Source: Candidatus Omnitrophota bacterium
GTDB lineage: Bacteria; Omnitrophota; Gorgyraeia; Duberdicusellales; 4484-171
Assembly: GCA_023819525.1 (NCBI GenBank)
Contig: JAMWCT010000001.1
Location: forward strand, 1 to 37,835
Direction: 5' to 3'
Length of the DNA: 37,835 nucleotides
The position numbers and the translations under genes were made by a program. Below the pieces are notes generated by a model. It searched no databases, was not told the DNA's origin, and saw only the letters and a list, made by a program, of their open reading frames with translations. Of this stretch, positions 17,655 to 37,835 are shown piece after piece (position 1 is the stretch's first letter; each line of letters begins with the position of its first letter).

Positions 17655-17780
17655 ATGAAAATTAGTGGTTGGATATTTATGATTTTCTCATGGGTGATGA
17701 TTTTAACTTTAGCAACATTTTGTTTTAGCAAGATTTACAAACACGGCCTATCTACTCACAAAAAACGAAAGACTAAATAG
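17655..17780 (+). CDS. Possible 41-aa single-pass membrane peptide (not in the supplied track)
   Basis: Translated by hand as MKISGWIFMIFSWVMILTLATFCFSKIYKHGLSTHKKRKTK. It has a hydrophobic helix plus a basic tail. It is preceded by taGGTGatatt and overlaps the trmI 3' end convergently by 8 nt. No homolog is recognised. Confidence 0.3.
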   Translation: MKISGWIFMIFSWVMILTLATFCFSKIYKHGLSTHKKRKTK

Positions 17781-18540
17781 GTTTTATTATCTTGGAAGCA
17801 AAAACAATCCAACCAGTATGTGAGGGCATACGTTGTTGTGGTCTAGTCTTTCCTCTTCTAACTAAAATTTTTCGCACTAACACCTCTGAACTTTCGATAT
17901 TAGTAAATCCTTTTTCTTCTAAAGCAAAAACAGTTTTAGTAAGTTGCTCAAAAGTAGGACAAATTGTAGCTAAGCGCGCCCCGCCTTTAAGTGCATCATA
18001 AGCCGCGCTAATTAATTCCCAAGGACTTCCAATGTCAATCATAACAAAATCAACTTCCTTTTCATCAAACTTATCAATTACTTCTTTTAATTTAAATTCT
18101 ACATATTCTGCCAATCCATAACGCTCGACATTCTTTTTAGCATTTTCTAAAAAATTTATATTTTTTTCATAACTATAAACTTTACCCGTTGGTCTTACAA
18201 AATTTGCTAAAACTGTCGTAAGTGCACCGCTACCACTACCACACTCAATTACTTTCGCTCCGGGAAAAATATTAGCATTTAGCAAAATTAAACCTATATC
18301 TTTTGGGTATAGAATTTGAGTTTGCCTTTTTATTTTCATTACTTTTTCATAAAGATAAGGTTTTAAAATATAAAAAACTTCTCCTAAATTTGTTGTAATG
18401 CCCTCACCAAATTCTTTACCTATAATATCTTTTAACTCTATATAACCTAGATCTGTATGGAATTGTCCTATACCGACTTTGACCAAAAAGTTTCTATTTT
18501 CGTCTTTATATAAAAAAACCAAATCTTTATCTTTAATCAT
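17773..18540 (-). CDS. trmI: tRNA (adenine-N1)-methyltransferase (TrmI/Gcd14 family)
   Basis: GAKVIECGSGSGALTTVLANFVRPTGKVYSYE, DFVMIDIGSPW, RPQQRMPSHTGW. Confidence 0.88.
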   Translation of the reverse strand: MIKDKDLVFLYKDENRNFLVKVGIGQFHTDLGYIELKDIIGKEFGEGITTNLGEVFYILKPYLYEKVMKIKRQTQILYPKDIGLILLNANIFPGAKVIECGSGSGALTTVLANFVRPTGKVYSYEKNINFLENAKKNVERYGLAEYVEFKLKEVIDKFDEKEVDFVMIDIGSPWELISAAYDALKGGARLATICPTFEQLTKTVFALEEKGFTNIESSEVLVRKILVRRGKTRPQQRMPSHTGWIVFASKIIKPI

Positions 18541-24951: not shown

Positions 24952-24989
24952 AGAAGAGGGAATGGAGGAGACATCGTACTTCCCTTTGG

Positions 24990-25340
24990 CCGAAAAGCTA
25001 AATTTTTTATTAAGTAAAGTATCTAAATCAACTGTTGGCAACATAAGTGCTTCTTCTGGTAAGTTTGGTTGTTTTTCTTTAGCTTGCAGCCAATGTGTCT
25101 TATGTAGGAATTAGGTCTTTTCCATAAAATCTCTTCTATCAGAGAATTCTTCTATTTCATAGAATTCCAATTCTATCAAATTATGCATAGTTTCAATTTA
25201 GACCGGAATCTGTGAGCACCTGCAGGAATAGTTTGATGTAATAGACCAGTCTTCTCTAAAGCTTCAGTGTAAGCAGAAGGTTACTTATTAAATCAAGAAT
25301 CACAATATTTTAAAACCTTCATTAGTCTGGCGTTTACCTT
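24990..25340 (-). pseudogene. Degraded C-terminal remnant of a DDE/rve-type (IS481/IS3-like) transposase
   Basis: Minus-strand hand translation gives PSAYTEALEKTGLLHQTIPAGAHRFRS (25280-25201). After a frameshift it gives ETMHNLIELEFYEIEEFSDRRDFMEKT*FLHKTHWLQAKEKQPNLPEEAL. This resembles the ...GI.H..TRP..PQTNGK.ERFH.TLKEEFY....F.S.EEL...L..W...YN..RPH..L..KTP.E tail of rve integrases. Stops and frameshifts are present, there is no N-terminal catalytic part, and the stretch is visibly more GC-rich than its flanks. Confidence 0.5.
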
Positions 25341-25366
25341 TTTCCGTACTTAATTTTTCTTTCTAC

Positions 25367-25396
25367 TTGACAATAAAATGCAAACTAAAGTATAAT
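25367..25396 (+). promoter_or_regulatory. Consensus sigma70 promoter TTGACA-N18-TATAAT heading the 13-gene accessory operon
   Basis: TTGACA at 25367-25372 and TATAAT at 25391-25396, both perfect hexamers. The first ATG (25406) starts 10 nt after the -10 and has no Shine-Dalgarno sequence. Confidence 0.55.
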
Positions 25397-25405
25397 GATT
25401 TCTGT

Positions 25406-26254
25406 ATGTATGAATTATACTGGAATTTAAAAGAGAAACCTTTCGAAAATACGCCTGATCCAAAATATATTTACTATTCTTCTTTGCATAAAGAAGCAAT
25501 CTCAAGACTTCTATATGCGGTGAGAGAAAGAAAAGGTGCTGCACTTTTAACAGGAGAGTATGGCAGTGGCAAGACCTTATTAAGTAGAATTCTTTTAGAA
25601 GAATTAGCCCAAGAACATATTTATCAGTATGTAGTTATTTTTAATCCAAGATTAGATGCGACAGATTTGTTGCGGACAATACTTATACAGTTATCAGAGC
25701 AAAACCAGTCAACTTCTAAAGCAGAAATACTTTCATCTTTATACAATATATTTTATTCTATTTATCGCTCAAATAGGCACACGGTAATAGTTATAGACGA
25801 AGCTCAAGCAATTATAAATGAGGAAGTTTTTGAAGAGTTAAGATTATTATTAAATTTTCAATTAAATAATGCATTTTTGCTTACTTTAGTTATTTTAGGC
25901 CAACCTGAATTAAAAGTAAAAATTGCAAAATTACCACAATTACTTCAGCGACTTTCTATACGCTATCATTTAAATGCCTTAAATGAAGTAGAGACAAAAG
26001 AGTACATTTTACATAGACTTTCAGTTGCAGGCGCAACAATACAGCCTTTCACCGAAGATGCCTTTAAAGATATCTATTTTTTTTCAGCCGGTATTCCAAG
26101 ACAAATTAATACTATATGCGATTTAGCATTACTTGTTGGTTATGGAGAGAATTTAAAGGAAATTACTAGAGATGTAATTTTAAAAGTGGCTGAAGATATA
26201 AAACCAACACCATCTTTATTAGAAAAACAGCAGGGTTTATATTTTGGAAAATAA
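25406..26254 (+). CDS. ExeA/GspA-like AAA ATPase (COG3267 type)
   Basis: MYELYWNLKEKPFENTPDPKYIYYSSLHKEAISRLLYAV matches the family N-terminus. Walker A GEYGSGKT, Walker B VIVIDEAQ, then LVILGQPEL and GIPRQINTICD. The start is set at ATG 25406. The track's TTG at 25367 is the -35 hexamer. Confidence 0.8.
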   Translation: MYELYWNLKEKPFENTPDPKYIYYSSLHKEAISRLLYAVRERKGAALLTGEYGSGKTLLSRILLEELAQEHIYQYVVIFNPRLDATDLLRTILIQLSEQNQSTSKAEILSSLYNIFYSIYRSNRHTVIVIDEAQAIINEEVFEELRLLLNFQLNNAFLLTLVILGQPELKVKIAKLPQLLQRLSIRYHLNALNEVETKEYILHRLSVAGATIQPFTEDAFKDIYFFSAGIPRQINTICDLALLVGYGENLKEITRDVILKVAEDIKPTPSLLEKQQGLYFGK

Positions 26255-26258
26255 ATAT

Positions 26259-27266
26259 ATGATTAAAATTTCCGATATTTTTGATAAACATAAAAAAAAT
26301 AAAATTGAAAACAAAGAAAAAGCAAAAGACTTAATTTCTAAAACAACCGATGCACCTGTCTCTTATTCTGAAGGCGATCAAGAAAGTGTTTCTTTGCAAG
26401 TAATTAATATAACTACCAACCTGATAGATTTAGCGCTTAAAATTTACAAACCGAATGCCCTTAATTTAGATTTAATAAATAAATTAAAAAACTGTATCAA
26501 TATGCTTGTAGAATTTAAAAATTTGGAAGATGATTTTTTAAAAGTATTTTTTAAAGACTATCCAGAAGACTCTACCTATTTAGTCTATCATATAGCAAAT
26601 ACTTCTATTTTAAGTTTAGAAGTCGCTAAAACTTTAAAGTATGATAACGAAAGGCTTTTTTATTTAGGTTTAGGAGCTTTTTTGCATAAAATAGGTTTAA
26701 CTACAATTTTAGACATAACCTTAGAAGATTCTCAATTAGAGCAAGCAAAAAGTGAAAAAATAAAGACACATCCTTTGGTGGGCAGTAAAATTTTAAAAGA
26801 ATTTGAAAAAGAATTTGATTCAACTACAATTAAAATTGTTGAGCAGAGTTTTGAAAGGATAGATAAAAGCGGTTATCCTTTAGGGATAGATGAACCAATA
26901 CCAGAAGCTCAAATAGTAAATATTGTCCAAGTATATGAGAGTTTGGTTCATAAAAGAAATTATCGGGAAAAATTTAATCCACTTAAAGCAATGAAAATAA
27001 TTATAGAAGATAAAGGTTTTGTGAATAATAAAATAAAAAAGGCATTAATTGAAAGGGTTGGTTTTTATCCACCAAATACACTCGTACTTCTTAATACAAA
27101 AGAAGAAGCAATTGTAATAGCAACAAATTTTAAAAATCCTTTAAGGCCGATAGTAAAAAAAATATCTACTCAAAATAAGATCCAAATTACAGAGCCAAAG
27201 ATTATTAATTTAGCCAAAGATACCCATTTTTATATTGAGAAAATTTTAACTCAAAATGGCCAATAA
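26259..27266 (+). CDS. Degenerate HD-GYP-like domain protein
   Basis: GAFLHKIG (HD replaced by HK), KTHPLVGSKIL, SFERIDKSGYPLGI (HHE replaced by SFE, GYP retained), IVNIVQVYESLVHKRNY (the DxxD position reads QxxE). The start is set at ATG 26259. The track start at 26244 is TTG. Confidence 0.6.
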   Translation: MIKISDIFDKHKKNKIENKEKAKDLISKTTDAPVSYSEGDQESVSLQVINITTNLIDLALKIYKPNALNLDLINKLKNCINMLVEFKNLEDDFLKVFFKDYPEDSTYLVYHIANTSILSLEVAKTLKYDNERLFYLGLGAFLHKIGLTTILDITLEDSQLEQAKSEKIKTHPLVGSKILKEFEKEFDSTTIKIVEQSFERIDKSGYPLGIDEPIPEAQIVNIVQVYESLVHKRNYREKFNPLKAMKIIIEDKGFVNNKIKKALIERVGFYPPNTLVLLNTKEEAIVIATNFKNPLRPIVKKISTQNKIQITEPKIINLAKDTHFYIEKILTQNGQ

Positions 27267-28962
27267 AAAGGTTTTTTTTGTTTCAATAAGTATTCTTTTT
27301 TTAGTTTTTGTTATCTCATATTATTTAACCACACTTATCTATAAAGAAAAATTTGATTCAGATTTTTTGCAATATTCTAAATATTTTGAAAAGACTACCA
27401 GAGAAAACGACGCGCTTAATTTAGCGAAAAAAATATTTGAAAGTGCACAATTTAAAATAAATGTTTTACAGGATAAAATATATCAATTAGAGAAAAAAAA
27501 TAAAAGTCTAATTCAAGAGATAAAAGATAAACAAAAAGAAATAGAAAAAATCAATCAAAATAAATCATTAGCGGAGAAAGAACTTAATCAGCTCTTAAAA
27601 GATAAAGTTTTAATAGATCAAGAGATTAAGAAACTAAAAGAAAAATTAACCAATTATGAAATAGATAATAGAAGATTGGCTGAAGAGAATTTAGTTCTAA
27701 AAGAGGAAATTGAAAAATTTCAAAATGAAAATTCAGCTTTAAATAAAACTGTAAATTTGCTAAAAGAAAATATAAATAATAAAGAGGCTGTAGAAAAAAA
27801 ACTTAAAGAAAGAGTTGTTTACTTAAACAATCTTTTGTTAGAAAAAGACAATTTAATAACTACAAAGAATGCTCAAATAAATAATCTTAATACAGTAAAA
27901 GTAAATTACGAAGAAAAAATAAATGAATTAATAGAAGAAAACTCTAATTTAAAAAAATCACTTTTGTCTTTACAGGAAGAATTATCTACAAAAAAATTAG
28001 AATTAACCGAATTATTAAAGCAAAAATATATGCAAAAACAGCAAAATTTAAAAATGCAGGAAACGATTAATTCTATATCAGCCACACTAAGCGAAAAAGA
28101 TCAAATGTTGCAAGCTACAGAAAGCGAAAATGAAGCTTTAAAAAGCACGGTTAAAAAACAAATTAAAGAATTTCAGGATTTGCAAAAACTTTATAATAAA
28201 GTTTCAACTGAGTATAATATATTAAATGATAAGTTAAAAAATTTAGAAGAAGAAAAAAACCAACTTCAAAGTCAATATTTAAACTATAAACTTGAAACAC
28301 AAAAACAACTAGAGGAAACTACCGCCAAATTGCTATCTACACAAAGAGAATTAAACAATTTAAAAAATGAATTAGAGAACCAAAAGCAACTTAATCTAAC
28401 AACAAATAATCAATTGTTACAGTTTACAGAAGAGATAAAAGAAAAAGAGGCAAGAATAGGAGAGCTTCAAAATCAAAAAACTTCCTTAGAAGAAGAAAAA
28501 TACACGCTTAATGATAAAATGAAAGACATACAAAACAAATATAATCAACTTTTGGTAAACCACAATAGTCTACAAGAAAAATTTTCTAATTTGCAAAAAA
28601 ATTTTGAAGAAATTAAAGTCGAAAAAGAAGCGCAGATAAATAAATTAATTGAGGAAGCCAAATTACTTAAGCAAGAAGTTTCTTTAAAAGAAAAAGCAGT
28701 TTCCAATTTAAAGGAACAATTTGAGCATTTAAACCAAAAATATATAGTAGTTTCCAAAGAAAATTTAGATTTAAACTCGCAAAATTATCAATTAAGGCAA
28801 CAGATAGATGAGTTAAATGTAAAAATAGATAATATTTTAAAAGATAAGGAGAAAACCATTAAAATAAAACAACAATTAAGTCCAAAAGTTACCAAAAAAA
28901 CTAAAGTAGAAGAGTTAAAAAATAAAGTTGAGGAAAAATTAAGAGAAATTATAGCTTTTTAG
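27256..28962 (+). CDS. Membrane-anchored long coiled-coil protein
   Basis: One N-terminal TM helix (VFFVSISILFLVFVISYYLTTLIY), then about 520 aa of E/K/L/N/Q-rich heptad-like sequence. No enzymatic motif is present. Confidence 0.6.
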   Translation: MANKKVFFVSISILFLVFVISYYLTTLIYKEKFDSDFLQYSKYFEKTTRENDALNLAKKIFESAQFKINVLQDKIYQLEKKNKSLIQEIKDKQKEIEKINQNKSLAEKELNQLLKDKVLIDQEIKKLKEKLTNYEIDNRRLAEENLVLKEEIEKFQNENSALNKTVNLLKENINNKEAVEKKLKERVVYLNNLLLEKDNLITTKNAQINNLNTVKVNYEEKINELIEENSNLKKSLLSLQEELSTKKLELTELLKQKYMQKQQNLKMQETINSISATLSEKDQMLQATESENEALKSTVKKQIKEFQDLQKLYNKVSTEYNILNDKLKNLEEEKNQLQSQYLNYKLETQKQLEETTAKLLSTQRELNNLKNELENQKQLNLTTNNQLLQFTEEIKEKEARIGELQNQKTSLEEEKYTLNDKMKDIQNKYNQLLVNHNSLQEKFSNLQKNFEEIKVEKEAQINKLIEEAKLLKQEVSLKEKAVSNLKEQFEHLNQKYIVVSKENLDLNSQNYQLRQQIDELNVKIDNILKDKEKTIKIKQQLSPKVTKKTKVEELKNKVEEKLREIIAF

Positions 28963-28965
28963 ATT

Positions 28966-29793
28966 ATGTTTTGGATAAATTTTTTGTTATTTTTTTTCTT
29001 TTTTCTACATCCTGCCTTCTCAGAAAACCTTATAGAAAAAATAAAAATAACATACAAAAAAGCAAATTATTATTATCAGCGTGGCGAATACCAAAAAGCT
29101 GAGAAAGAATATCTGGAAACTTTAAGGCTTATCGATGAATATAAGATTAACCTAAAAGATAAAAATCAGGCAAGCAGTAAAAAAGAAAAAACAACCTTAT
29201 ATACTATTGGCGAAGGCGATATTTTATATATTTCTGTCTGGCAAAATGAAGATTTAAATCAAGAGATAATTGTAAGACCAGATGGATATGCATCTTTTCC
29301 TTTAATTGGAGATTTAAAGATATCTGGTTTAACAATACCTCAATTAGACAAACTACTTACCGAAAAATTGAAAGAATATATACGTAGACCAGAAGTTTCA
29401 ATAACTTTGAGAAAAATTGGAGGAAGCAGGGTTGTTTTATTAGGTGAAGTTACTTGGCCAGGGGTATACCATGTTGATGGAACAAAGACGGTTTTAGAAT
29501 TAATCGGAATGGCCGGGGATTTTACTCTTGACGCGGTAAAATCAAGTGTGATTTTAATAAGAGGTGGATTTTTAAATCCAGAAGTTAGACGACTAAATAT
29601 AGCAAATGTATTAAAAGGAGACCTAACTGATAATGTTGTGCTTCAATCAGAAGATATAGTCTTTGTTCCAAAAACCTTTATTTCAAACCTAAACTATGTT
29701 ATAAATCAGATCCTTGAGCCGCTTTCAGGTGGTAGTATGGTTTATTCAAAATGGCATTCCTTTGACCGTCTGCCAAGAGAAAAAAAGCCTTGA
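28966..29793 (+). CDS. Polysaccharide-export (Wza-like Poly_export + SLBB) periplasmic/outer-membrane protein
   Basis: Signal peptide MFWINFLLFFFFFLHPAFS. YTIGEGDILYISVWQNEDLNQEIIVRPDGYASFPLIGDLKISGLTIPQLDKLL (Poly_export), then VVLLGEVTWPGVYHVDGTKTVLELIGMAGDFT (SLBB). There is no lipobox Cys. Confidence 0.78.
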   Translation: MFWINFLLFFFFFLHPAFSENLIEKIKITYKKANYYYQRGEYQKAEKEYLETLRLIDEYKINLKDKNQASSKKEKTTLYTIGEGDILYISVWQNEDLNQEIIVRPDGYASFPLIGDLKISGLTIPQLDKLLTEKLKEYIRRPEVSITLRKIGGSRVVLLGEVTWPGVYHVDGTKTVLELIGMAGDFTLDAVKSSVILIRGGFLNPEVRRLNIANVLKGDLTDNVVLQSEDIVFVPKTFISNLNYVINQILEPLSGGSMVYSKWHSFDRLPREKKP

Positions 29794-29800
29794 AAATAAA

Positions 29801-31636
29801 ATGTTTAAGGTTCTTCTATGTATCCCGCCAGATTACGAATATAGTTACCCACCTCTTGGGACAGCTTCGCTTTGCGGTTTTTTGAAAGCAAAAAAAATAG
29901 ATACCCTACAAATGGATTTAAACATACTTTATAGAAAATTTCTTTTAAATAAAATTGAAGCAGATTTTTTAGATACCCATCAAAAAAAGAAAATTTTAAA
30001 GCAAATTCTCTTTAATTTCTTTCATAAAAAATTAAAAGATAGATATTATTCTGATTTTTTACCAAGAAATACTGATAGAATTTTTCCATTTTTACCTTAT
30101 GAAAACAATTCAAATAGTTCCTTTTATTTTACCGAAAGACTACTTTCTTCTGAATATCTTTTTTATTATCTTTCTGATATCAAAGAAAATACTTTTTATC
30201 AATTTTACCAACAAGAAAAAATTTTAGATTTTTTGGATAAAGAAAAAATTAATTTATGTGGAATATCTGTTATCTCCCCTTCACAGGTAATTGCATCTTT
30301 AACCTTAGGTTTTTTAATTAAAAAGAACTTACCGCATATACATATAACTTTTGGTGGACAATGGGTGACTTTATATAGGAAGGCTTTACTTAAAAGAAAA
30401 AAATTTTTTTCCTGTTTTGATAGTTTAGTTGTCTTTGAAGGAGAAACCCCTCTTTATAGACTTTGCTGTATGTTAAAGCAAAAAAGAAAGTATTATATTA
30501 AAAATTTAATATTTAAAGAGACAAAAGAAGATTTTACCTATAACCATACTGAAGAAGACCTAAATAAATTGCCAACTCCAGATTTTGATGGCCTGCCTTT
30601 GAAAGAATACGACGCAAATGACTTTAAAACTATAACATTAACTTATGAAACCTCAAGAGGTTGTTATTGGGCAAGATGTGCATATTGCGTAGATTTACCT
30701 TTACCTAAACCAACTTATAGAAAAAAAGCAGCATATTTAGTTTCAAATGATATAAAAAAATTAAAGAAAAAGTATAAAGCAACAAATCTTCTTTTTAGCG
30801 ATCCAGCGCTTTCGCCGCGTCAAATGCTTGAGGTTTCAAAAGAACTACTAAAAAACCGAATAAAGATAAAATGGTGGTGTATGGCTAGACCAGATAGTGG
30901 TTTTAAGTATGAAATTTTTAAAGCTGCTTTTAGGGCAGGACTTACACATATAAATTTTGGCTTTGAAACAGCAAATGATAGATTGTATAATCTTCTTTCT
31001 AAAGGAACAAAATTAGAAATAGTTAAAAAAGTAATTAGAGATTGCAAAAAAGCAGGTATTTTAGTAGACCTGCAAACAATGTTAGGACTTCCAAAAGAAG
31101 GCTTTCAAGAAGGTTTAAATACAATAGAGTTTTTGGTAAAAAATAAAAAATACATCTTTAATGTTAGTTTCAATCTTTATTATCTTACCCCTCAAAATCA
31201 TATATTTTGTCAACCAGAAAAATATCAAATAGAATATAAGCAAAAATACCCATTTAGTTTTTTTATACCTTTTAGAAATAGAGAAGGCCTGACAAGAAAA
31301 GAAGCTTATCTACTTTGGTTACTTTATGAAAAACTTATCAATAAAGAAAAAACTTACAATTTAGGTCCTTTAGAATCTATTAAAATACCTAATTATATAG
31401 AAGAAAAAATAATTCGTTTTAAGTTGCTTGAAGAATCAATTAAATTGTATTGTCTTTTTGATACAAAATCTAAAAAATTTATAGTTATGGATAGAATAAG
31501 GAAGAATATGTTGAAGCTACTGGAGAATAAAAATTTTCACCATTTAGCAAAAGAGCAAATTGATTTTTTAAATTATCTTCTAAAAGAAAAATTTTTAAAA
31601 AAAACTCCAAAATATGGCCGAGAAACTGCTCTTTAA
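29801..31636 (+). CDS. B12-binding-domain radical SAM protein
   Basis: N-terminal KVLLCIPPDYEYSYPPLGTASLCGFL and ISVISPSQV (B12-binding Rossmann pattern). Radical SAM cluster region TSRGCYWARCAYC, followed by NFGFETANDR. The start is set at ATG 29801, 7 nt after the upstream stop. Confidence 0.75.
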   Translation: MFKVLLCIPPDYEYSYPPLGTASLCGFLKAKKIDTLQMDLNILYRKFLLNKIEADFLDTHQKKKILKQILFNFFHKKLKDRYYSDFLPRNTDRIFPFLPYENNSNSSFYFTERLLSSEYLFYYLSDIKENTFYQFYQQEKILDFLDKEKINLCGISVISPSQVIASLTLGFLIKKNLPHIHITFGGQWVTLYRKALLKRKKFFSCFDSLVVFEGETPLYRLCCMLKQKRKYYIKNLIFKETKEDFTYNHTEEDLNKLPTPDFDGLPLKEYDANDFKTITLTYETSRGCYWARCAYCVDLPLPKPTYRKKAAYLVSNDIKKLKKKYKATNLLFSDPALSPRQMLEVSKELLKNRIKIKWWCMARPDSGFKYEIFKAAFRAGLTHINFGFETANDRLYNLLSKGTKLEIVKKVIRDCKKAGILVDLQTMLGLPKEGFQEGLNTIEFLVKNKKYIFNVSFNLYYLTPQNHIFCQPEKYQIEYKQKYPFSFFIPFRNREGLTRKEAYLLWLLYEKLINKEKTYNLGPLESIKIPNYIEEKIIRFKLLEESIKLYCLFDTKSKKFIVMDRIRKNMLKLLENKNFHHLAKEQIDFLNYLLKEKFLKKTPKYGRETAL

Positions 31637-31988
31637 ACTTACAGGCTCAAGCATGTATCCATTAATAAGGGAGGGAAGTTATATTTTAGTTAAGCCAACA
31701 AAAAAAATTTTTTTTGGTGAACTTGTTGTTTTCAAAGAGGGCGATAAGATTATCTGTCACCGTTTAATTTTTAAAAAAAATCATTTTTTTTATTCTAAGT
31801 CTGATACTGAACTTTTTAGAATAGAAAAATTAAATATAGAAAATATTTTAGGAAAAGTGGTAATGGTTATAGATTTTAAAAAACGTATATTTTTAAATAA
31901 TTTTTTTTGGTATCTCAAAAGTTTATTATTTTTTTTCTTTACCCCAATTTTAGTAATATTTCTTAATTTTTTTAAAAAAAATGAATAG
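31614..31988 (+). CDS. S26B (Sec11/SipW, Ser-His type) signal-peptidase-like protein with a C-terminal TM helix
   Basis: GSSMYPLI (box B Ser13), GELVVF (box C), ICHRLI (box D with His49, not Lys), SKSDTE (weak box E). Hydrophobic tail FFWYLKSLLFFFFTPILVIFLNFF. There is no N-terminal TM or signal sequence. Confidence 0.6.
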   Translation: MAEKLLFKLTGSSMYPLIREGSYILVKPTKKIFFGELVVFKEGDKIICHRLIFKKNHFFYSKSDTELFRIEKLNIENILGKVVMVIDFKKRIFLNNFFWYLKSLLFFFFTPILVIFLNFFKKNE

Positions 31989-33411
31989 CATTTATATAGT
32001 TGAAGAGCACCATCAAGTTTTAAGAATATGGAGAAAGAAAAAAATTAAAAATTTAGATGTTTTGCACATAGATGCACATCTTGACTGGCAAGTTTTTCTG
32101 GCAAAACCTATAGAACAGATTTTAAGAGATTCAAAAACAATAAAACAACTAAAAGAAGAATTAGAAAACACACTTCTATACTTTCAATACCAAAAGAATT
32201 TAGGAGAACAAACAAATATAGGAAATTACCTATATCCAGCACAAAAAGAAAATATAATAAAAAATATCTGGTGGGTGGTTCCTTCAAAAAATTTATATAA
32301 AGATATAAGCTTAATAAAAAAATTTTTCTTTTATTTAAAAAAAGATTCTCGATTAGCAGAAAAACCAATTTTTAAATTAAAAAATAAAATTTTGAAAGTA
32401 AATTTTGCAGAGCAGGTTTTTTACATTTGCACACTTTATGACCTACCTAAATTTAAAGATGAGGTTATATTAGATATAGATATAGATTTTTTTGTAATTA
32501 ATAATTTAAAAAAAACAGACAATGTAACTGATATCGCAAAAAGAAAACTTTGGATACAGCCAAAAGAAGTAGCAACCCTCTTAAAAGAAAAAGTAAAAAA
32601 CTCTAAAATCATTACTATTTCTTATTCTACTAACGATGGTTTTACTCCAATAGAGTTTAGGTATATAGCTAGTGAACTGGCATTTTATTTTTCACCTCAA
32701 AAATTCAAAAATAGATTTTTAAAAAGTTTTAAAGCGCATATAAATTTTTTCGCATTTAAAGAAACAAAAAAAAGTTTTTACTATTGGCAAGCAGTCAAAT
32801 TAGATAAAGCTTATAGATTTAAAGATAATAACTTTGGTTTTCTTTATTTGAAAATAAAAAAATTTAATTTAGCTAAAAAAGAATTTGAAAATATTTTATC
32901 TGTAGACAAAACTAACCCAGCGGCTCTTTTAGGTTTAGGATTTATATATTTTCATAAGAAAAAATTAAAAGAAGCCAAAAAAAATCTTTATAAAGCTTAT
33001 TATTTTTCAAAAATTCAAAGATTTTTTTCTATCTACAGAAAAGCAATATTTCTTTTGGCTAAATTAGAATTTAGGTTAAAAAATTTTAGAGTATCTAAAA
33101 AATTTTTTTTAAAATTTATCAAAAGCGAATCAACTGAACCAGAGGCTTATTTTTATCTTGCAAGACTGCTCATTTTAGAAAAAAAATTTCTAAAAGCAAC
33201 CATTTACTTAAAAGATGCTGTAAAGTTAGGCTTGGAGGTTGATGGTTTATTTTATTTAGCAAAAATTTTAACCTTCCTAAAGAAAAACAAATATGATATA
33301 ATAAATTTTATAAATCAAAGAATAATCTTTATAAAAAACAAAAAATTAAAAAAGATAAAATATGTAAGAGAAATTTTAAAAAAATTTAAATATGCAGGAG
33401 ATAATCTATAA
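31981..33411 (+). CDS. Arginase/deacetylase-fold (UPF0489-like) domain fused to TPR repeats
   Basis: The N-terminus has IVEEHHQVL, LHIDAHLDW (D31-x-H33-x-D35) and ILDIDIDFF (D165/D167/D169), which mimic the ureohydrolase metal-ligand motifs. The C-terminal half has TPR-like repeats (AALLGLGFIYFHKKKLKEAKKNLYKAY, EAYFYLARLLILEKKFLKATIYLKDAV). Confidence 0.55.
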   Translation: MNSIYIVEEHHQVLRIWRKKKIKNLDVLHIDAHLDWQVFLAKPIEQILRDSKTIKQLKEELENTLLYFQYQKNLGEQTNIGNYLYPAQKENIIKNIWWVVPSKNLYKDISLIKKFFFYLKKDSRLAEKPIFKLKNKILKVNFAEQVFYICTLYDLPKFKDEVILDIDIDFFVINNLKKTDNVTDIAKRKLWIQPKEVATLLKEKVKNSKIITISYSTNDGFTPIEFRYIASELAFYFSPQKFKNRFLKSFKAHINFFAFKETKKSFYYWQAVKLDKAYRFKDNNFGFLYLKIKKFNLAKKEFENILSVDKTNPAALLGLGFIYFHKKKLKEAKKNLYKAYYFSKIQRFFSIYRKAIFLLAKLEFRLKNFRVSKKFFLKFIKSESTEPEAYFYLARLLILEKKFLKATIYLKDAVKLGLEVDGLFYLAKILTFLKKNKYDIINFINQRIIFIKNKKLKKIKYVREILKKFKYAGDNL

Positions 33412-33685
33412 AAAAAATCCTAATTTTGTAGCAAGAGAGATTGTCAATGAATTAGTCTTGGTTCCTATATATAAGGATACAAAAGAACTAAACTGTATTT
33501 ATACTTTAAATAAACCTGCTAAAGTTTTTTGGCAACTTTTAGATGGAAAAAGAACGATTTCGCAAATAAAAAAAGAACTCTTAAAAAAATTTTCTTCTAT
33601 AGATTTAGATAATAATTTTGAAAAGTTAATAAAAGAACTTCTAGAAATAAAAGCAATAAAAAAATCATATGAAACCAAAATTTAA
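33392..33685 (+). CDS. PqqD-family peptide chaperone (RiPP recognition element)
   Basis: 97 aa. FVAREIVNELVLVP...IYTLNKPAKVFWQLLDGKRTISQIKKELLKKF...LIKELLEIKAIK fits the PqqD beta-strand plus three-helix pattern. Confidence 0.8.
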   Translation: MQEIIYKKNPNFVAREIVNELVLVPIYKDTKELNCIYTLNKPAKVFWQLLDGKRTISQIKKELLKKFSSIDLDNNFEKLIKELLEIKAIKKSYETKI

Positions 33686-33866
33686 TCCAAAAATTACCAA
33701 AATCAAATTAAATCCAGAACAAGCAGTTTTAATCTGCAGTTGTTATCGCTCAGGAAGAGTTATAGCTACTAGTGGTACTCGTTCAAGCACTCGGGTTTGT
33801 GGAAGAGGAACTGTAAGAGGATATCCTAGATATGCAACCACAACAACCAGCAGAAGCTGGAGTTAA
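33669..33866 (+). CDS. Candidate RiPP precursor peptide (65 aa)
   Basis: MKPKFNPKITKIKLNPEQAVLICSCYRSGRVIATSGTRSSTRVCGRGTVRGYPRYATTTTSRSWS. The leader is Lys-rich. The core has 8 Arg, 3 Cys and many Ser/Thr/Gly, and ends in Ser. Its start overlaps the PqqD stop by 17 nt, and an rSAM/SPASM gene begins 7 nt after its stop. Core DNA is about 44% GC versus about 24% for the leader (hand count). Confidence 0.65.
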   Translation: MKPKFNPKITKIKLNPEQAVLICSCYRSGRVIATSGTRSSTRVCGRGTVRGYPRYATTTTSRSWS

Positions 33867-33873
33867 TTTTTAA

Positions 33874-34917
33874 ATGCCAGATGAGTTTTATAATTTTTTT
33901 AAAAAATTAGACAATAATCTTTTTATAAACCAAGCCCACCTTGAGATTACATATCGTTGTAACCTAGATTGCGTTTATTGTTATTGTTTAAAAAATTCTA
34001 ATGAAATTAGTACTAATCAATTTAAAAAAATAATTGCTCAGTTAAAGGATTTAAATATTTTTTTCCTTACATTTAGTGGTGGAGAACCTTTTTTAAGAGA
34101 GGATTTTTTAGAACTATATTTATATGCAAAGCAAAAAGGTTTTTTGATAAGTGTATTAACTAATGGAACGCTTTTTAATAAAAAAAATATAGGTGTTTTA
34201 GCAAAAGCACCTCCATATGTAATTGAGATAACTTTAAATGCAATAAGCCAAAAGATTTATCAAAAAATCACACAGACTAATTTTAAAGTAAAAAAAGTTT
34301 TAGAAAATATCAAATTTTTAAAGGAAAAAAATATACCAGTTAAAGTTAAAACTACTGTTTTGAATTTAAATAAAGATGAGTTAATAAAGATTAAAAACTA
34401 TGTGTTTTCTGTTTTAGGAAAACCAAAGAAAGGCTATCTATTTGGTTACGATTTTTATATTTATCCTAAAATTGATGGAGAGAAAACACCAATAAAATAT
34501 AGATTAAATTTTACTCAAATAGAGAATATTTTAAAAAAAGATAGGGATTTATGGCGAGATTGGAAAAAAGAACTGAAAAGAAATTTGCCAAAAATTAATT
34601 TAAAAAATAAATTTTTCTGCACTTTCCCACTACAAAATTTTGTTATCTCGCCTACAGGAAAATTAAAATTTTGTATATTTTCTACTAAATTCAGTCAAGA
34701 TATAAAAGAAAAACCTATTAATTTAACTCACAGAGAACTTCTAAAAAATTTAGAAAATTATTTTCACGAATATAAAAATTCTTGTTATTTTAATTGCAAA
34801 TTTAATAAAACCTGTTTTTGGTGTCCTATAAGGCAAGAACTTGAAGGTAAAAGCAATTTAGATTATTTTTGCGCTTGGGCAAAATATTTTTATAAAGAAA
34901 CAAAAAGATGCAGATAA
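33874..34917 (+). CDS. Radical SAM/SPASM peptide maturase, paralog 1
   Basis: CNLDCVYC (CX3CX2C), FSGGEPFLR, C-terminal CTFPLQNFVISPTGKLKFC (CX12GX4C), CYFNCKFNKTCFWC and a final YFC. Confidence 0.82.
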   Translation: MPDEFYNFFKKLDNNLFINQAHLEITYRCNLDCVYCYCLKNSNEISTNQFKKIIAQLKDLNIFFLTFSGGEPFLREDFLELYLYAKQKGFLISVLTNGTLFNKKNIGVLAKAPPYVIEITLNAISQKIYQKITQTNFKVKKVLENIKFLKEKNIPVKVKTTVLNLNKDELIKIKNYVFSVLGKPKKGYLFGYDFYIYPKIDGEKTPIKYRLNFTQIENILKKDRDLWRDWKKELKRNLPKINLKNKFFCTFPLQNFVISPTGKLKFCIFSTKFSQDIKEKPINLTHRELLKNLENYFHEYKNSCYFNCKFNKTCFWCPIRQELEGKSNLDYFCAWAKYFYKETKRCR

Positions 34918-35969
34918 AAGCTCAAAGTGATTTTTTTTATAAATTGCATAAAGAGGCAATAAAAAGAAGAATTCCTTTGAGAGTTATGTTTGAGATCACA
35001 TATAGATGTAATTTTAGCTGTCAATATTGCTATTTGCCAAAAAGCTATCGAAACATTAAAGAATTAAATAAAAAAGAGGTTTTTTCTATATTAAAAGATT
35101 TAGCAAAAGAAGGGTGTTTTTATTTAGGTTTTAGTGGGGGTGAACCTTTTTTAAGAAATGATTTTTTAGAGATATTAGAATTTTCTAAAAGGTTAGGATT
35201 TTTTATAACTATAAATACAAATGCTTCTTTAATTAACAAAAAAGTTGCAAAAAAAATCATTGATTTGGGCATAAATAAGATTGATATAAATATTATTAGT
35301 CTAAAAGAAGCTATTTTTAGAAAAGTTACAAAAAGTTTACGTTTTAATAAAGTTTTAGATGCTATTTATTTTTTAAAAAGTAAAATTCCTTTGGGATTTA
35401 AAACTTGTATAACAAAATATAATTTTAACCAAATAGAAAATATAAAAAAATTTGCTAAAAGTATGGGGGTTTTTTTAAGATTAGACGATAGACTAAGCCT
35501 TTGTTTAAATGGAGATAACCGTCCTTATAGATTTAGTATATATAAGATTGAAGACCTAGATTTAGATTTATATTTAGAGAAAAAAGTTTCAGTTAAAAAA
35601 TTTAAGGCTATAGATATATTTAGTTGTAAAGCAGGATTTTTACAATGCGCCATTAATCCGGCTGGTAAAATTAAAATATGTGTTGGCATAGATGCCCCTT
35701 TATATAGTTGTAAAAAAAATTTTAAAAGAGCCTGGCAAAGATTGGAAGATTTTTTAAATTTAATTAAAATAGATGATAGATTTAAATGTTTTAGATGTAA
35801 ATTAAAAAATTTTTGTGACTGGTGTCCCGCAAAGTCTTTTCTTGAAAATAAGGACTTTATAAGTTGCGATAAGGAAAGTAGGTTTTTTGCATATCAAGCT
35901 TACAAAAAATATTATGAGCAAACAAATATATTTAAAAATAGCAGATACAGTAGTTTTGTTGGAAAGTAA
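34908..35969 (+). CDS. Radical SAM/SPASM peptide maturase, paralog 2
   Basis: CNFSCQYC, FSGGEPFLR, CKAGFLQCAINPAGKIKIC, CFRCKLKNFCDWC and a final SC. Confidence 0.82.
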   Translation: MQIKAQSDFFYKLHKEAIKRRIPLRVMFEITYRCNFSCQYCYLPKSYRNIKELNKKEVFSILKDLAKEGCFYLGFSGGEPFLRNDFLEILEFSKRLGFFITINTNASLINKKVAKKIIDLGINKIDINIISLKEAIFRKVTKSLRFNKVLDAIYFLKSKIPLGFKTCITKYNFNQIENIKKFAKSMGVFLRLDDRLSLCLNGDNRPYRFSIYKIEDLDLDLYLEKKVSVKKFKAIDIFSCKAGFLQCAINPAGKIKICVGIDAPLYSCKKNFKRAWQRLEDFLNLIKIDDRFKCFRCKLKNFCDWCPAKSFLENKDFISCDKESRFFAYQAYKKYYEQTNIFKNSRYSSFVGK

Positions 35970-36822
35970 ATTTGAATATGCAAAGAACGACAAAGGCATA
36001 GCACCAGAGCGTTTCAGTAATTTTTTTTATAAAAAAGCAATACCGGATATAAAGATAGAGATACAAATAGTAGAAAAGTTCCCCCAAGACTTTTACAGGC
36101 CGGATGGTTTTTCAACAATTCACCCACAGGATAAGTCTTTATGTTGGCAATGGGAAGAAAAAAAAGATTATTTTATTTTTAGAAGTTTAGTAGAAGGTAA
36201 ATTTCAATTAGCACAAATTGAAAAAAATTTCAAAAATGTGAGATTTTTTGTCCTGCCACAAAAAAATAAATTTATATGGTTTGCCACAGATGTAATTTAT
36301 GATTTTTTACAAATACTTTTTTTAGTTTATTTTGCAAAAACAAAAAAAGGGATATTTTTACATGCAAGTGGTATAAATTTATATGGCAGTGGTTTTGTCT
36401 TTGCAGGAAAATCAGGCGTAGGAAAAACTACTTTAGCCAAACTTTGGAATAAATATTCTGATGCAGAAATTTTAAACGATGATAGGATAATTGTGCGAAA
36501 ACAAAATAAGCAATTTTTTATATATGGTTGCCCTTGGCATGGAGCTTTTAGCGATTATTTAAAATCAAGGATGCATCCAGCGCCTTTAAAAAAAGTATTT
36601 TTTATCTATCCGGCTAAAAAAAATATTCTAAAAAAGTTAAATTTTTTTGATGCATTTAAACTTCTATATCCGGCTATTTTTCCTGTCTTTTGGGATAGGC
36701 TTTCGTTAAATAATATATTTTTATTTTTAAACGATTTGTTAGAAAATATAGTTTGTTTCTCTTTAGGATTTAGAAAGACAAAGGATATAATTAAATTTTT
36801 TAAAGAAAAGTGTTTAAATTAG
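35914..36822 (+). CDS. HPr-kinase-like P-loop kinase
   Basis: IFLHASGINLYGSGFVFAGKSGVGKTTLAKLW...ILNDDRIIV matches the HprK C-terminal catalytic core (lHg..v...G.GvLi.G.SG.GKS..A..L......l..DD). The start is set at ATG 35914 (MSKQIYLKIAD). The track start at 35887 is possible. Confidence 0.72.
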   Translation: MSKQIYLKIADTVVLLESKFEYAKNDKGIAPERFSNFFYKKAIPDIKIEIQIVEKFPQDFYRPDGFSTIHPQDKSLCWQWEEKKDYFIFRSLVEGKFQLAQIEKNFKNVRFFVLPQKNKFIWFATDVIYDFLQILFLVYFAKTKKGIFLHASGINLYGSGFVFAGKSGVGKTTLAKLWNKYSDAEILNDDRIIVRKQNKQFFIYGCPWHGAFSDYLKSRMHPAPLKKVFFIYPAKKNILKKLNFFDAFKLLYPAIFPVFWDRLSLNNIFLFLNDLLENIVCFSLGFRKTKDIIKFFKEKCLN

Positions 36823-37835
36823 CTTATAAAAATTTTAGTCTTGCAACTCATATAAAAAGCATAAGTCTAAAAAAAATAATTTTTGCTCAATTTGATTTAA
36901 CTTATAAGTGTGATTATTCTTGTAATTACTGTTATACAATTTGTTTCAACAAAGAAAAATATTTGAAAAAAGAATTAGATACCAACAAAATAAAAGCTAT
37001 TTTAGATAAACTTTATAATGAAGGTATCCTATGGCTTACTTTTAGTGGAGGAGATCCATTAACAAGAAGTGATTTTTTAGAAATTTATAAGTATTCAAAG
37101 GAAAAAGGTTTTCTTATAAGTATCCTTACAAATGGTTATAGGATAGACTTAAAACTAATCGATTTTTTCAAAAAGTATAGACCCTTTTTGATTGAGATTA
37201 CTTTAAATTCTATAAATCCCAAAACTTTTAAAAAAATTATCCAAAAAAATTTAAATTCAGAAAAGGTGCTTTCTGTAATAAAAAAATTAAAAAAAGAAGG
37301 GCTACCACTAAAAATAAAGACCCAAGTTATAAAGAATAATTTAGATGAAATTCCAAAAATAAAAAAATTTCTTCAAAAACTAAATTTAAAATTTTACCCA
37401 TCTTCTATAATATATCCAAGACTAAATAAAAATAAATTTCCTTGCTCGTTAAGGATAGATAAAGAGAAGTTTTTCAAAAAAAATTTGGGTTGTAATCAAA
37501 ATTTTAAGAAACATTTTAAATTTTTTCCCTGCACAGTTTTGAATACAGAGGGAATTCAGATTGATCCTTATGGAAATGTTTTTCTATGCGAACTTATAAG
37601 AAAACCTAAAGTAAATATTTTAAGATGTGACTTAAAAACTCTATACAATAAACTTATAGATTTTTTAAAAGATTTAGAAAACAGGTATAAAGATAAATGC
37701 CTTTGTGCAAGATGTAGATATATATATAGTTGTATGTGGTGTCCAGGGAAGGCATATTTAGAGACAAATAGTTTTATAAAACCAATAGATTATTACTGCC
37801 TACAAAAAGAAATTTTAAATTATGGAAAAAGTATC
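36810..37835 (+). CDS. Radical SAM/SPASM peptide maturase, paralog 3 (GTG start; 3' end cut by the window edge; absent from the supplied ORF track)
   Basis: Hand translation gives (V/M)FKLAYKNFSLATHIKSISLKKIIFAQFDLTYKCDYSCNYCY...LTFSGGDPLTRSDFLEIYKYSKEKGFLISILTNG...CTVLNTEGIQIDPYGNVFLC...CLCARCRYIYSCMWC...YYC. The frame is open from the stop at 36801-36803 to nt 37835 (342 codons). The only plausible start is GTG at 36810. It is most similar to paralog 1. Confidence 0.8.
   Translation, partial: MFKLAYKNFSLATHIKSISLKKIIFAQFDLTYKCDYSCNYCYTICFNKEKYLKKELDTNKIKAILDKLYNEGILWLTFSGGDPLTRSDFLEIYKYSKEKGFLISILTNGYRIDLKLIDFFKKYRPFLIEITLNSINPKTFKKIIQKNLNSEKVLSVIKKLKKEGLPLKIKTQVIKNNLDEIPKIKKFLQKLNLKFYPSSIIYPRLNKNKFPCSLRIDKEKFFKKNLGCNQNFKKHFKFFPCTVLNTEGIQIDPYGNVFLCELIRKPKVNILRCDLKTLYNKLIDFLKDLENRYKDKCLCARCRYIYSCMWCPGKAYLETNSFIKPIDYYCLQKEILNYGKSI

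Follow-up and report, generated by a model that had tools for sequence, protein, structure and literature searches.

The window analysed here, a whole contig of 37,835 nt from a Candidatus Omnitrophota bacterium (JAMWCT010000001.1), ends in thirteen open reading frames (ORFs) that all lie on the plus strand from 25406 to the contig end. It is moderately probable that they belong to a composite envelope operon, in which a cassette for a peptide made by ribosomes and modified after translation (RiPP), with a kinase, radical S-adenosylmethionine (radical SAM) enzymes and an ATP-binding cassette (ABC) pump of its own, is co-transcribed with polysaccharide-export genes. The thirteen genes would be the first part of an envelope operon of about 20 genes in a compact genome, transcribed from a promoter at 25367-25396. 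The contig is low in GC (about 28%), and the named close relatives of the window proteins were all from metagenome-assembled genomes of Candidatus Omnitrophota. The gene product assignments of a preliminary description of this DNA were confirmed by Pfam and NCBIfam, and the promoter and genes are as follows:

25367..25396, plus strand: sigma-70 consensus promoter TTGACA-18-TATAAT (12/12 consensus match)
25406..26254, plus strand: gene 1, ExeA-like AAA_22 P-loop ATPase, 282 aa (PF13401, E = 1e-22)
26259..27266, plus strand: gene 2, HD_5 (HD-GYP-type) protein with degenerate motifs (PF13487, E = 4e-13)
27256..28962, plus strand: gene 3, 568-aa coiled coil with an N-terminal membrane anchor (weak coiled-coil/SMC-like matches only)
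28966..29793, plus strand: gene 4, short outer-membrane polysaccharide export (OPX) protein (PF02563, E = 8e-23; PF22461, E = 3e-9)
29801..31636, plus strand: gene 5, B12-binding radical SAM protein (PF04055, PF02310, TIGR03975 E = 2e-27)
31614..31988, plus strand: gene 6, SipW/archaeal-type signal-peptidase-I-like S24/S26 peptidase (PF00717, E = 4e-10; TIGR02228 sigpep_I_arch, E = 7e-9)
31981..33411, plus strand: gene 7, peptide-arginase-like domain (UPF0489 / FlmR_OhkR_N) with C-terminal TPR (PF12640, 29.3 bits against a gathering threshold of 27)
33392..33685, plus strand: gene 8, PqqD-family RiPP recognition element (RRE) (PF05402, E = 5e-7)
33669..33866, plus strand: gene 9, 65-aa precursor peptide, leader MKPKFNPKITKIKLNPEQAVL
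33874..34917, plus strand: gene 10, radical SAM protein with Cys-rich SPASM-like C-terminus (PF04055, E = 6e-24)
34908..35969, plus strand: gene 11, radical SAM protein with Cys-rich SPASM-like C-terminus (PF04055)
35914..36822, plus strand: gene 12, ScmC-family, HprK/PEPCK-fold P-loop protein (precomputed PF27840)
36810..37835, plus strand: gene 13, third radical SAM/SPASM-like enzyme (the contig stops before its stop codon)

Gene String and Promoter

As the preliminary description had proposed, the thirteen genes form one gap-free string, which is headed by the promoter and follows the largest spacer of the window, and a single transcription unit of genes 1-13 is a reasonable reading of their arrangement. 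The junction distances given in that description (-11, -11, +3, +7, -23, -8, -20, -17, +7, -10, -83 or -56, and -13 nt) were reproduced exactly with its own start choices. Its start of gene 1, TTG 25367, proved to be no start codon and to equal the -35 hexamer; gene 1 begins at ATG 25406, where its homologues begin with MYxxYW and from where the TIGR03015 alignment runs from residue 14. The ATG 26259 that it preferred for the HD-GYP gene, with a 4-nt gap at the first junction, is also the start called in the close relative L001, and gene 12 starts at ATG 35914, matching a 302-aa protein on record and the N-termini of its homologues. With the corrected starts the junctions are +4, -11, +3, +7, -23, -8, -20, -17, +7, -10, -56 and -13 nt, so that all 12 are at most 7 nt and 8 of them are overlaps. 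Tight packing is common in this genome, however: the unrelated housekeeping genes upstream also overlap (TGT, TrmD, FolD, GuaB, GuaA, DnaE, MscS, GlnRS, GroES and ABC-F), 11 of their 20 junctions being at most 7 nt and 9 overlapping. Co-directionality and short junctions alone are therefore no proof of functional linkage here, although the 12-junction run is tighter than this background (0.55^12 = 8e-4; Mann-Whitney p = 0.03).

The promoter is the only perfect TTGACA-N18-TATAAT in the window (expected number 0.06; at least one site in 5 of 100 shuffles), and it is placed in the largest intergenic gap, a 454-nt spacer reaching up to ATG 25406, with 9 nt between the end of the -10 box and this ATG. 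An identical 12/12 promoter with the identical 9-nt spacing was observed in the related locus L070, whose operon is also headed by an ExeA-like gene. No Shine-Dalgarno sequence was seen between the -10 box and the gene-1 ATG (25391-25408), and a leaderless, or nearly leaderless, first cistron is implied. An Rfam scan of the window gave no match, and hence no riboswitch in the 454-nt spacer that precedes the operon. The non-coding part at 24952-25366 (about 415 nt) shows neither an ORF above 50 aa nor an Rfam match; it may be what is left of a gene that has been lost.

Internal signals apart from a weak hairpin had been thought absent from the string. Terminator-like sites were indeed at chance level (6 against 3.9 +/- 2.0) and the hairpin exists, in the last codons of the precursor gene on the plus strand (33847-33860; 5 bp, -7.9 kcal/mol, z = -1.98), with its 3' arm overlapping the GGAG upstream of gene 10; it is not conserved. 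A role as conserved attenuator was rejected, as the hairpin is weak and absent as a conserved feature in L001 and in the more distant relative L004. Promoter-like sites within the operon, in this AT-rich DNA, were at chance level as well (71 against 67 +/- 8) and are therefore uninformative for or against internal promoters.

Continuation of the Operon in a Close Relative

Looking up the exact sequence of gene 11 gave no record by which the contig might be extended; since the window is the whole contig, the downstream genes were read from L001 (GCA_023819445.1), whose gene-12 protein and precursor are 78% and 85% identical to those of the window. L001 has the same thirteen genes in the same order with the same 4-nt and 56-nt junctions, and it bears out the earlier claim that the operon runs past the window end, continuing it to about 20 genes in total with the following genes after gene 13:

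12-nt gap: 558-aa HlyB/MsbA-type ABC exporter without a peptidase domain
7-nt overlap: NTP_transf_5 nucleotidyltransferase
32-nt gap: Wzz/GNVR/AAA_31 protein, a Wzc-like polysaccharide co-polymerase (PCP)/tyrosine kinase (TIGR01007, 152 against a cut-off of 108)
76-nt gap: Wzy_C protein
20-nt overlap: MurJ/Wzx-family flippase (222.8 against the MurJ equivalog cut-off of 235.55)
34-nt overlap, then 0 nt: two methyltransferases

In L004, at 45% identity, the peptide genes are placed likewise. From these homologies, the peptide cassette is predicted to sit inside a polysaccharide-export locus, with the OPX gene on one side and the PCP gene on the other. A Glyco_transf_9 (heptosyltransferase-family) gene was also seen inside the cassette, between the ScmC-like and the last of the radical SAM genes, in L004 (L004:10932-12074), L062 and L070, and suggests peptide glycosylation in some lineages.

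Two sets of genes would thus be combined. Set (i), for polysaccharide assembly and export, would comprise the ExeA-like ATPase, its HD-GYP-like partner, the coiled coil and the Class-3-type OPX protein and, beyond the contig end by homology with L001, the Wzc-like PCP/tyrosine kinase, the Wzy_C protein and the MurJ/Wzx-family flippase. Set (ii), the RiPP cassette, would have as its core the SipW-type peptidase, the PqqD RRE, the HprK-like kinase and the downstream NTP_transf_5 protein and MsbA-like ABC pump, to which three radical SAM/SPASM-like enzymes, the B12 radical SAM enzyme and a predicted peptide arginase would be added.

Linkage of the Two Gene Sets across Relatives

Gene neighbourhoods were compared in 28 ScmC-centred loci from species-representative genomes, together with loci from an exact look-up, and were annotated with our own profile hidden Markov models (HMMs). 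Loci were taken as informative when dereplicated and with at least 8 kb on both sides, which left 14 ScmC-centred loci; on the envelope side, 80 ExeA-centred metagenome loci gave 14 informative dereplicated ones. The counts and gene orders are as follows:

ScmC-centred loci (n = 14), cassette genes: ABC exporter 14, PqqD 13, precursor 13, NTP_transf_5 11, S24 peptidase 7, arginase-TPR 6, B12 radical SAM 5
ScmC-centred loci (n = 14), envelope genes: ExeA 7, HD 7, Wza 6, Wzc-like 7, Wzy_C 7; at least one of these 11
ExeA-centred loci (n = 14): HD 14, Wza 12, peptide core 6 (8 counting partial cassettes at locus edges)
Gene order, class A: ExeA-HD-(coiled coil)-Wza-cassette-Wzc, 15 loci
Second gene order: ExeA-HD-cassette, with Wza-Wzc-WzyC downstream, 6 loci
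Third gene order: cassette-ABC-NTP-Wza-Wzc-ExeA-HD-WzyC, 2 complete loci plus edge cases

Both sets were found together in 7 of the 14 ScmC-centred and in 6-8 of the 14 ExeA-centred loci. L045 and L069 carry ExeA-HD-Wza-Wzc-WzyC without a peptide cassette, and L006 has the cassette amid housekeeping genes with no envelope genes nearby. The claim that the two modules are linked, for which the preliminary description had named a neighbourhood comparison as the check, thus holds for about half of the loci from either side and in at least three gene orders, and does not hold throughout, each set also occurring alone. Judged from these neighbourhoods, the envelope-peptide linkage is far above chance and survives rearrangement, but is facultative.

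These data also bear on an alternative that we consider unlikely, namely that the adjacency is without functional meaning, polysaccharide loci being hot spots of accessory genes and the peptide an antimicrobial or signalling RiPP lodged there. On this view any insert would turn co-directional and gap-free in a compact, strand-biased genome, and the unrelated housekeeping genes upstream are likewise joined by tight overlaps. One set occurs without the other in about half of the loci; the cores are hypervariable and a locus often has 2-3 precursor paralogues, a pattern of conflict-type RiPPs; and a patchy distribution resembling horizontal gene transfer was described by Popov et al. for the linear polyphosphorylated peptide (LPP) RiPPs (PMC13381572). 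On the other side, a two-way linkage of about 50% is far above the expectation for a 20-kb neighbourhood if the genome is, as presumed, of megabase scale, it persists through at least three gene orders and down to about 45% identity, and similar cassettes lie independently inside polysaccharide loci of the unrelated phylum Bacillota (PMC13381572). In class A, moreover, Wzc, Wzy_C and the flippase follow the cassette co-directionally with gaps of 32-76 nt and may be reached by read-through.

Envelope Genes and Peptide Export

The nearest NCBIfam family of gene 1 is the XrtA/PEP-CTERM-associated ATPase TIGR03015 (237.8 bits, under the cut-off of 324.5), and the gene is partnered with gene 2 as an ExeA-HD pair in 14 of 14 informative relatives. 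An identity as ExeA/GspA of type II secretion was rejected, as only the AAA_22 domain is present and there is no secretin in the window. Secretin genes were observed near ExeA in 8 of the 14 informative ExeA-centred relatives, usually as two secretin-TPR pairs; in many relatives a block of secretin, TPR, secretin, TPR and a hypothetical protein of about 205 aa precedes ExeA-HD, such as in L041, L045, L046, L048, L056, L057, L066, L068, L069 and L072 (at about 0-10 kb), while the window is without this block and has an ABC-F gene upstream instead. The invariant ExeA-HD pair and the secretin-TPR pairs upstream in half of the informative relatives therefore suggest that the ExeA-like ATPase serves outer-membrane channel assembly rather than peptide handling.

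The catalytic motifs of HD-GYP cyclic di-GMP phosphodiesterases (HD dyad, HHExxDGxGYP) are not matched by the gene 2 sequence, which has HK for HD and SFERIDKSGYP for HHExxDGxGYP; L001 and the window together show HK and S/AFERIDK(S/Q)GYP. The HD partners of other lineages have YD (L027), have lost GYP (L028) or are near-canonical (L004, L021 and L026), the L004 protein retaining HD and EHERMDGTGYP. Repeated loss of catalysis, with some other role kept, is suggested by these motifs. A 568-aa coiled-coil gene likewise lies between the HD and Wza genes in L004, and a similar-sized gap was seen at this place in several other relatives.

Gene 4 has a signal peptide, an N-terminal TPR-like stretch, Poly_export and one SLBB. 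Its score with TIGR03027 (111.4 bits) is below the cut-off of 180, it matches the Wza-type profile PRK15078 at positions 46-251 of 380 only, and the marks of a Class 1 Wza-type channel were absent, with no Wza_C match and a signal peptide without the lipobox Cys. This fits a Class-3-like OPX architecture, predicted to have no outer-membrane pore of its own; Class-3 OPX proteins lack such a pore and require a separate porin (PMC9603273).

The preliminary description had suggested that a Wza-like outer-membrane exporter with an ExeA-type ATPase could be a dedicated export route for the modified cationic peptide. Spelled out, the free peptide would, after an inner-membrane step, leave through the OPX channel, with the ATPase driving or assembling the Wza-like protein, a proposal that we now regard as highly doubtful. 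It draws on the direct adjacency of gene 4 and the peptide genes in the 15 class A loci, on ExeA-HD-Wza adjoining the cassette in about half of the loci, and on the need of a diderm for some outer-membrane route, no TolC-like gene having been seen in the L001 and L004 loci. Its premise, that no ABC or major facilitator superfamily exporter is visible, holds for the part of the operon within the window and fails beyond it: an ABC exporter stands right after gene 13 in the 78%-identical L001 and is present in 14 of 14 informative related cassettes, and its absence from the window is an artefact of the contig end. The proposal is further opposed by the Class-3 architecture of gene 4 without the pore-forming Wza_C segment, by Wza accompanying the Wzc-like and Wzy_C genes whether or not a cassette is present (L045, L069), by Wza adjoining Wzc and not the peptide genes in classes B and C, and by the cassettes of L006 and L016, which have the ABC pump only and no OPX gene within 10 kb. 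An 'ABC' HMM match at 23044-24951 was tried as the missing exporter and rejected, being an ABC-F ATPase without membrane domains.

Peptide-Modification Genes

Gene 5 is a probable peptide C-methyltransferase by its match to TIGR03975, the family of RiPP radical SAM C-methyltransferases, and the B12 radical SAM gene lies within the peptide cassette in relatives. Gene 6 has GSSMYP and CHRL motifs and a C-terminal membrane helix, read from the sequence, and is a candidate leader peptidase. In L006 (L006:3574-5421), NTP_transf_5 and Peptidase_S24 were found fused in a single 615-aa protein, and this fusion ties the nucleotidyltransferase to the SipW-type leader peptidase.

For gene 7, a single-sequence phmmer search against the PDB gave TPR matches only; OspR was found just by the profile of the N-terminal domain, whose top PDB match was this peptide arginase (8BRP, E = 1.2e-5). 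The binuclear Mn ligands of OspR are His12, Asp39, His41, Asp43, Asp165 and Asp167 (PMC10028609), and the corresponding H10, D31, H33, D35, D165 and D167 of gene 7 did not vary among 8 homologues, so that the full set of six is kept. The namesakes of PF12640, FlmR and OhkR, turn Arg of RiPP cores into ornithine by hydrolysis (PMC12703449). The largest Arg count per locus averaged 4.5 with the arginase gene and 1.25 without it (Mann-Whitney p = 2e-4, with kinship ignored). By family match and the six ligands, gene 7 is a predicted peptide arginase.

Genes 10, 11 and 13 match PF04055 at about E = 1e-24, while Pfam SPASM was not reported for them at E <= 0.01; their C-termini contain 7-8 Cys with SPASM-like spacing, and PF13186 is carried by an L002 homologue. 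The best NCBIfam matches of gene 10 are radical SAM/SPASM maturases, each under its cut-off, and gene 13 is essentially complete, all conserved C-terminal Cys being present in the alignment with L001 and L004.

PF27840 (ScmC) is precomputed for the gene 12 protein and its relatives, and the Hpr_kinase_C match is weak (20 bits). Walker A GKSGxGK[ST] and LNDDR are invariant in sixteen family members, and the AlphaFold (AF2) model (pLDDT 83, pTM 0.83) had PEPCK and HprK/P as top PDB matches in Foldseek (E = 4e-6 to 7e-6, probability 1.00), so that gene 12 is, on its modelled fold, a probable peptide Ser/Thr kinase. In lasso clusters, HprK-like kinases phosphorylate the C-terminal Ser side chain, a DD-to-AA mutant being inactive, and PsmN of the nucleotidyltransferase family is required to add hexose onto that Ser phosphate in pseudomycoidin (PMC6993621). 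The invariant C-terminal Ser/Thr of the precursors described below would fit this HprK-like kinase chemistry.

Precursor Peptide Family

The core of gene 9 has 43 residues, with a CSC start, a third Cys, 8 Arg, no acidic residue and Ser at the end. Its family contains 1045 members at E <= 1e-3, none with a name or a Pfam domain, and differential conservation was observed along the peptide: the leader M..KPKFKPxITRVKLNPEQAVL is nearly invariant, whereas the cores (39-69 residues) are hypervariable except for the initial CxC and one later Cys. Among the best 120 of the 1045 members, all 120 have EQAVLxCxC, all 120 have a third Cys besides CxC, and the C-terminal residue is Ser in 112 and Thr in 8, with Ser and Thr together making up 26% of core residues overall. 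The extra radical SAM enzymes and the invariant Cys argue for a product that is cross-linked, not linear.

In many loci, such as L010 (three copies), L002, L006, L009, L011, L016, L022, L025, L027, L033 and L034, two or three precursor paralogues share their leader and have quite dissimilar cores, and additional truncated precursors of 38-39 aa without the C-terminal Ser were seen in L009 and L013. One family member, P0191, is labelled Elusimicrobiales and not Omnitrophota, representing either a binning error or a family that reaches beyond the phylum.

Proposed Pathway and Relation of Peptide and Polymer

In the composite operon proposed here, the conserved leader would be bound by the RRE, the three invariant Cys cross-linked by the radical SAM/SPASM-like enzymes, and the peptide methylated by the B12 radical SAM enzyme; the arginase would turn some of the eight Arg into ornithine, the kinase would phosphorylate the invariant C-terminal Ser, whose phosphate the NTP-transferase may extend, and the membrane peptidase would then cut off the leader before inner-membrane export through the cassette's own ABC pump. 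The Wza, ExeA, HD, Wzc and Wzy proteins would serve the polysaccharide. Being co-transcribed, peptide and polymer would therefore be made together, and they most likely act as partners on the cell surface or within the matrix. The fallback idea of the preliminary description, a peptide that is an envelope or matrix component, fits the evidence better than its Wza-export proposal, in the form of a peptide made together with a polysaccharide.

Several points weigh against the composite operon and the pathway drawn from it. The tight packing is partly a genome-wide trait, and about half of the related loci keep the two sets apart (e.g., L006, L045 and L069). For the ABC, NTP-transferase, Wzc, Wzy_C and flippase genes, all of them outside the window, the presumption comes from a relative with 78% identity. 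Of a Wzx/Wzy-dependent polysaccharide pathway, the OPX gene is in the window and Wzc-like, Wzy_C and MOP-family flippase genes are in L001, but the 20.7 kb of L001 showed neither a glycosyltransferase nor a priming phosphoglycosyl transferase; the flippase, near the MurJ cut-off, could be the housekeeping lipid II flippase, and polymerase and ligase are not distinguished for Wzy_C. Each chemical step is a prediction from homology, and the one LPP studied is phosphorylated on a Ser at core residue 3 and not on the C-terminal residue (PMC13381572).

A closer, covalent relation was also weighed, in which the peptide is joined to a sugar or polysaccharide via its phosphorylated C-terminal Ser/Thr, through the NTP-transferase, the Glyco_transf_9 protein in some loci and possibly Wzy_C as ligase, and leaves through the OPX pathway; little probability is given to it. 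Such a conjugate finds support in the C-terminal Ser/Thr of all 120 best precursors against 26% Ser and Thr across the cores, in the kinase and NTP-transferase that place phosphate and then hexose on the C-terminal Ser of pseudomycoidin (PMC6993621), in the Glyco_transf_9 genes inside the L004, L062 and L070 cassettes, in the ABC/NTP_transf_5 end of the cassette adjoining Wza or Wzc in most linked loci, and in a weak match of the L001 Wzy_C protein to the exosortase-system 'putative O-glycosylation ligase' TIGR03097 (E = 7e-6). All of this is indirect, however, and the TIGR03097 score is far under its cut-off (25 against 188 bits), LppN was inactive in the one LPP system assayed (PMC13381572), and some genomes (L006) have the cassette without nearby polysaccharide genes. 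Stated in terms of function, a cross-linked, ornithine-bearing peptide whose phospho-Ser/Thr C-terminus is the attachment point for a sugar or polysaccharide, and which caps, primes or anchors the exopolysaccharide and exits via OPX/PCP, is quite improbable. If true, it would represent a pathway parallel in function to PEP-CTERM/exosortase sorting and made of RiPP enzymes, and would explain the HprK-kinase/NTP-transferase cassettes in polysaccharide loci of two unrelated phyla.

Comparison with Known Systems

LPP RiPPs were described in Bacillota by Popov et al. (Nat Commun 2026; PMC13381572); their clusters sit in capsular polysaccharide loci, are up-regulated together with an exopolysaccharide gene and were considered by the authors to be restricted to Bacillota. 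The composite operon shares with them the five-function core of SpI-like (SipW-type) peptidase, discrete PqqD-type RRE, HprK-like kinase, NTP transferase and MsbA-like pump, of which genes 6, 8 and 12 lie in the window and the ABC and NTP_transf_5 genes after gene 13 in L001, as well as one to three precursors per cluster with conserved N-terminus and hypervariable C-terminal part, and the polysaccharide-locus setting. It differs in its diderm Omnitrophota host; in its leader, KFKPxITRVKLNPEQAVL, in which the LPP motif YxxPxVLxHQxIxFETxxS was not found; in the invariant CxC...C, the 2-3 radical SAM/SPASM-like enzymes, the B12 radical SAM enzyme and the predicted peptide arginase, which are found only here; in the C-terminal position of the invariant Ser/Thr, whereas LppK phosphorylates core residue 3; and in the nesting of the cassette between OPX and PCP genes in one operon. 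By these comparisons of predicted proteins, the Omnitrophota cassette resembles the LPP family and is not a member of it.

The tailoring of the lasso peptides paeninodin and pseudomycoidin (PadeK/PsmK, PsmN; PMC6993621) likewise involves an HprK-like kinase, whose DD motif is essential, and a partner of the NTP_transf_5 type, along with a precursor with a final Ser and an ABC pump. Here, in contrast, a lasso cyclase and a B2 protease are both missing, which means that the peptide cannot be of the lasso type.

An ScmC-type HprK-like protein, a PqqD relative and two radical SAM/SPASM-like enzymes are shared with the SynChlorMet (ScmC/D/E/F) and GeoRSP cassettes (NCBIfam TIGR04248-04251, TIGR04303), which Haft and Basu reportedly described in 2011 and which are said to be uncharacterised themselves. 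The NCBIfam scores obtained here are far below the equivalog cut-offs, with 21.4 against 125 for ScmC (TIGR04249), 23.2 against 100 for ScmD (TIGR04248), 71.9 or 62.6 against 400 for ScmE (TIGR04250) and 75 against 400 for the GeoRSP radical SAM protein. Literature searches for SynChlorMet/ScmC returned unrelated acronyms only, and those for Omnitrophota RiPPs only generic surveys of biosynthetic gene clusters.

With XrtA/PEP-CTERM exopolysaccharide loci the operon shares the trio of ExeA-like ATPase, short OPX protein and PCP/tyrosine kinase, and the best NCBIfam matches of gene 1, gene 4 and the L001 Wzc-like gene are subfamilies of PEP-CTERM loci (TIGR03015, TIGR03027 and TIGR03007/03018). 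Membership was rejected, as the scores are under the cut-offs, partners are missing and the peptide is without a PEP-CTERM signal; no exosortase was found in the Pfam tables of L001, L002, L004 and L006. The Class-3 OPX systems of Myxococcus (WzaX/S/B; PMC9603273, PMC9601211) resemble gene 4 in having Poly_export-SLBB, about 256-275 aa and no Wza_C, and in being encoded alongside a PCP and a Wzy-like protein. They differ from it in that gene 4 has the N-terminal TPR-like stretch and that no beta-barrel porin could be identified as its partner; many relatives have two secretin-TPR pairs upstream of ExeA instead. Compared with the peptide arginases OspR, FlmR and OhkR (PMC10028609, PMC12703449), the N-terminal domain of gene 7 belongs to the same Pfam family and keeps the six Mn ligands, whereas its C-terminal TPR extension of about 220 aa and its predicted substrate, a precursor of a new type, are different.

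Popov et al. left open why kinase/NTP-transferase RiPP clusters occupy capsule loci and what role the peptide has (PMC13381572). Since the same core also occurs between OPX and PCP genes of one operon in a candidate phylum of diderms, the question of peptide-polysaccharide coupling becomes sharper and testable. The precursors would define a large, so far nameless Omnitrophota RiPP family that unites four modification chemistries, and would be a new precursor type for peptide arginases, backed by the genomic correlation between the arginase gene and core Arg. The operon also corrects a tempting misreading of the Wza-like protein as a RiPP exporter.

Upstream Region

The large ORFs of the window are all on the plus strand except one (17773-18540, minus strand), and GC skew is positive over nearly the whole window; both agree with a compact genome of strong strand bias. 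At 1693-3912, a 7TM-sensor histidine kinase was observed.

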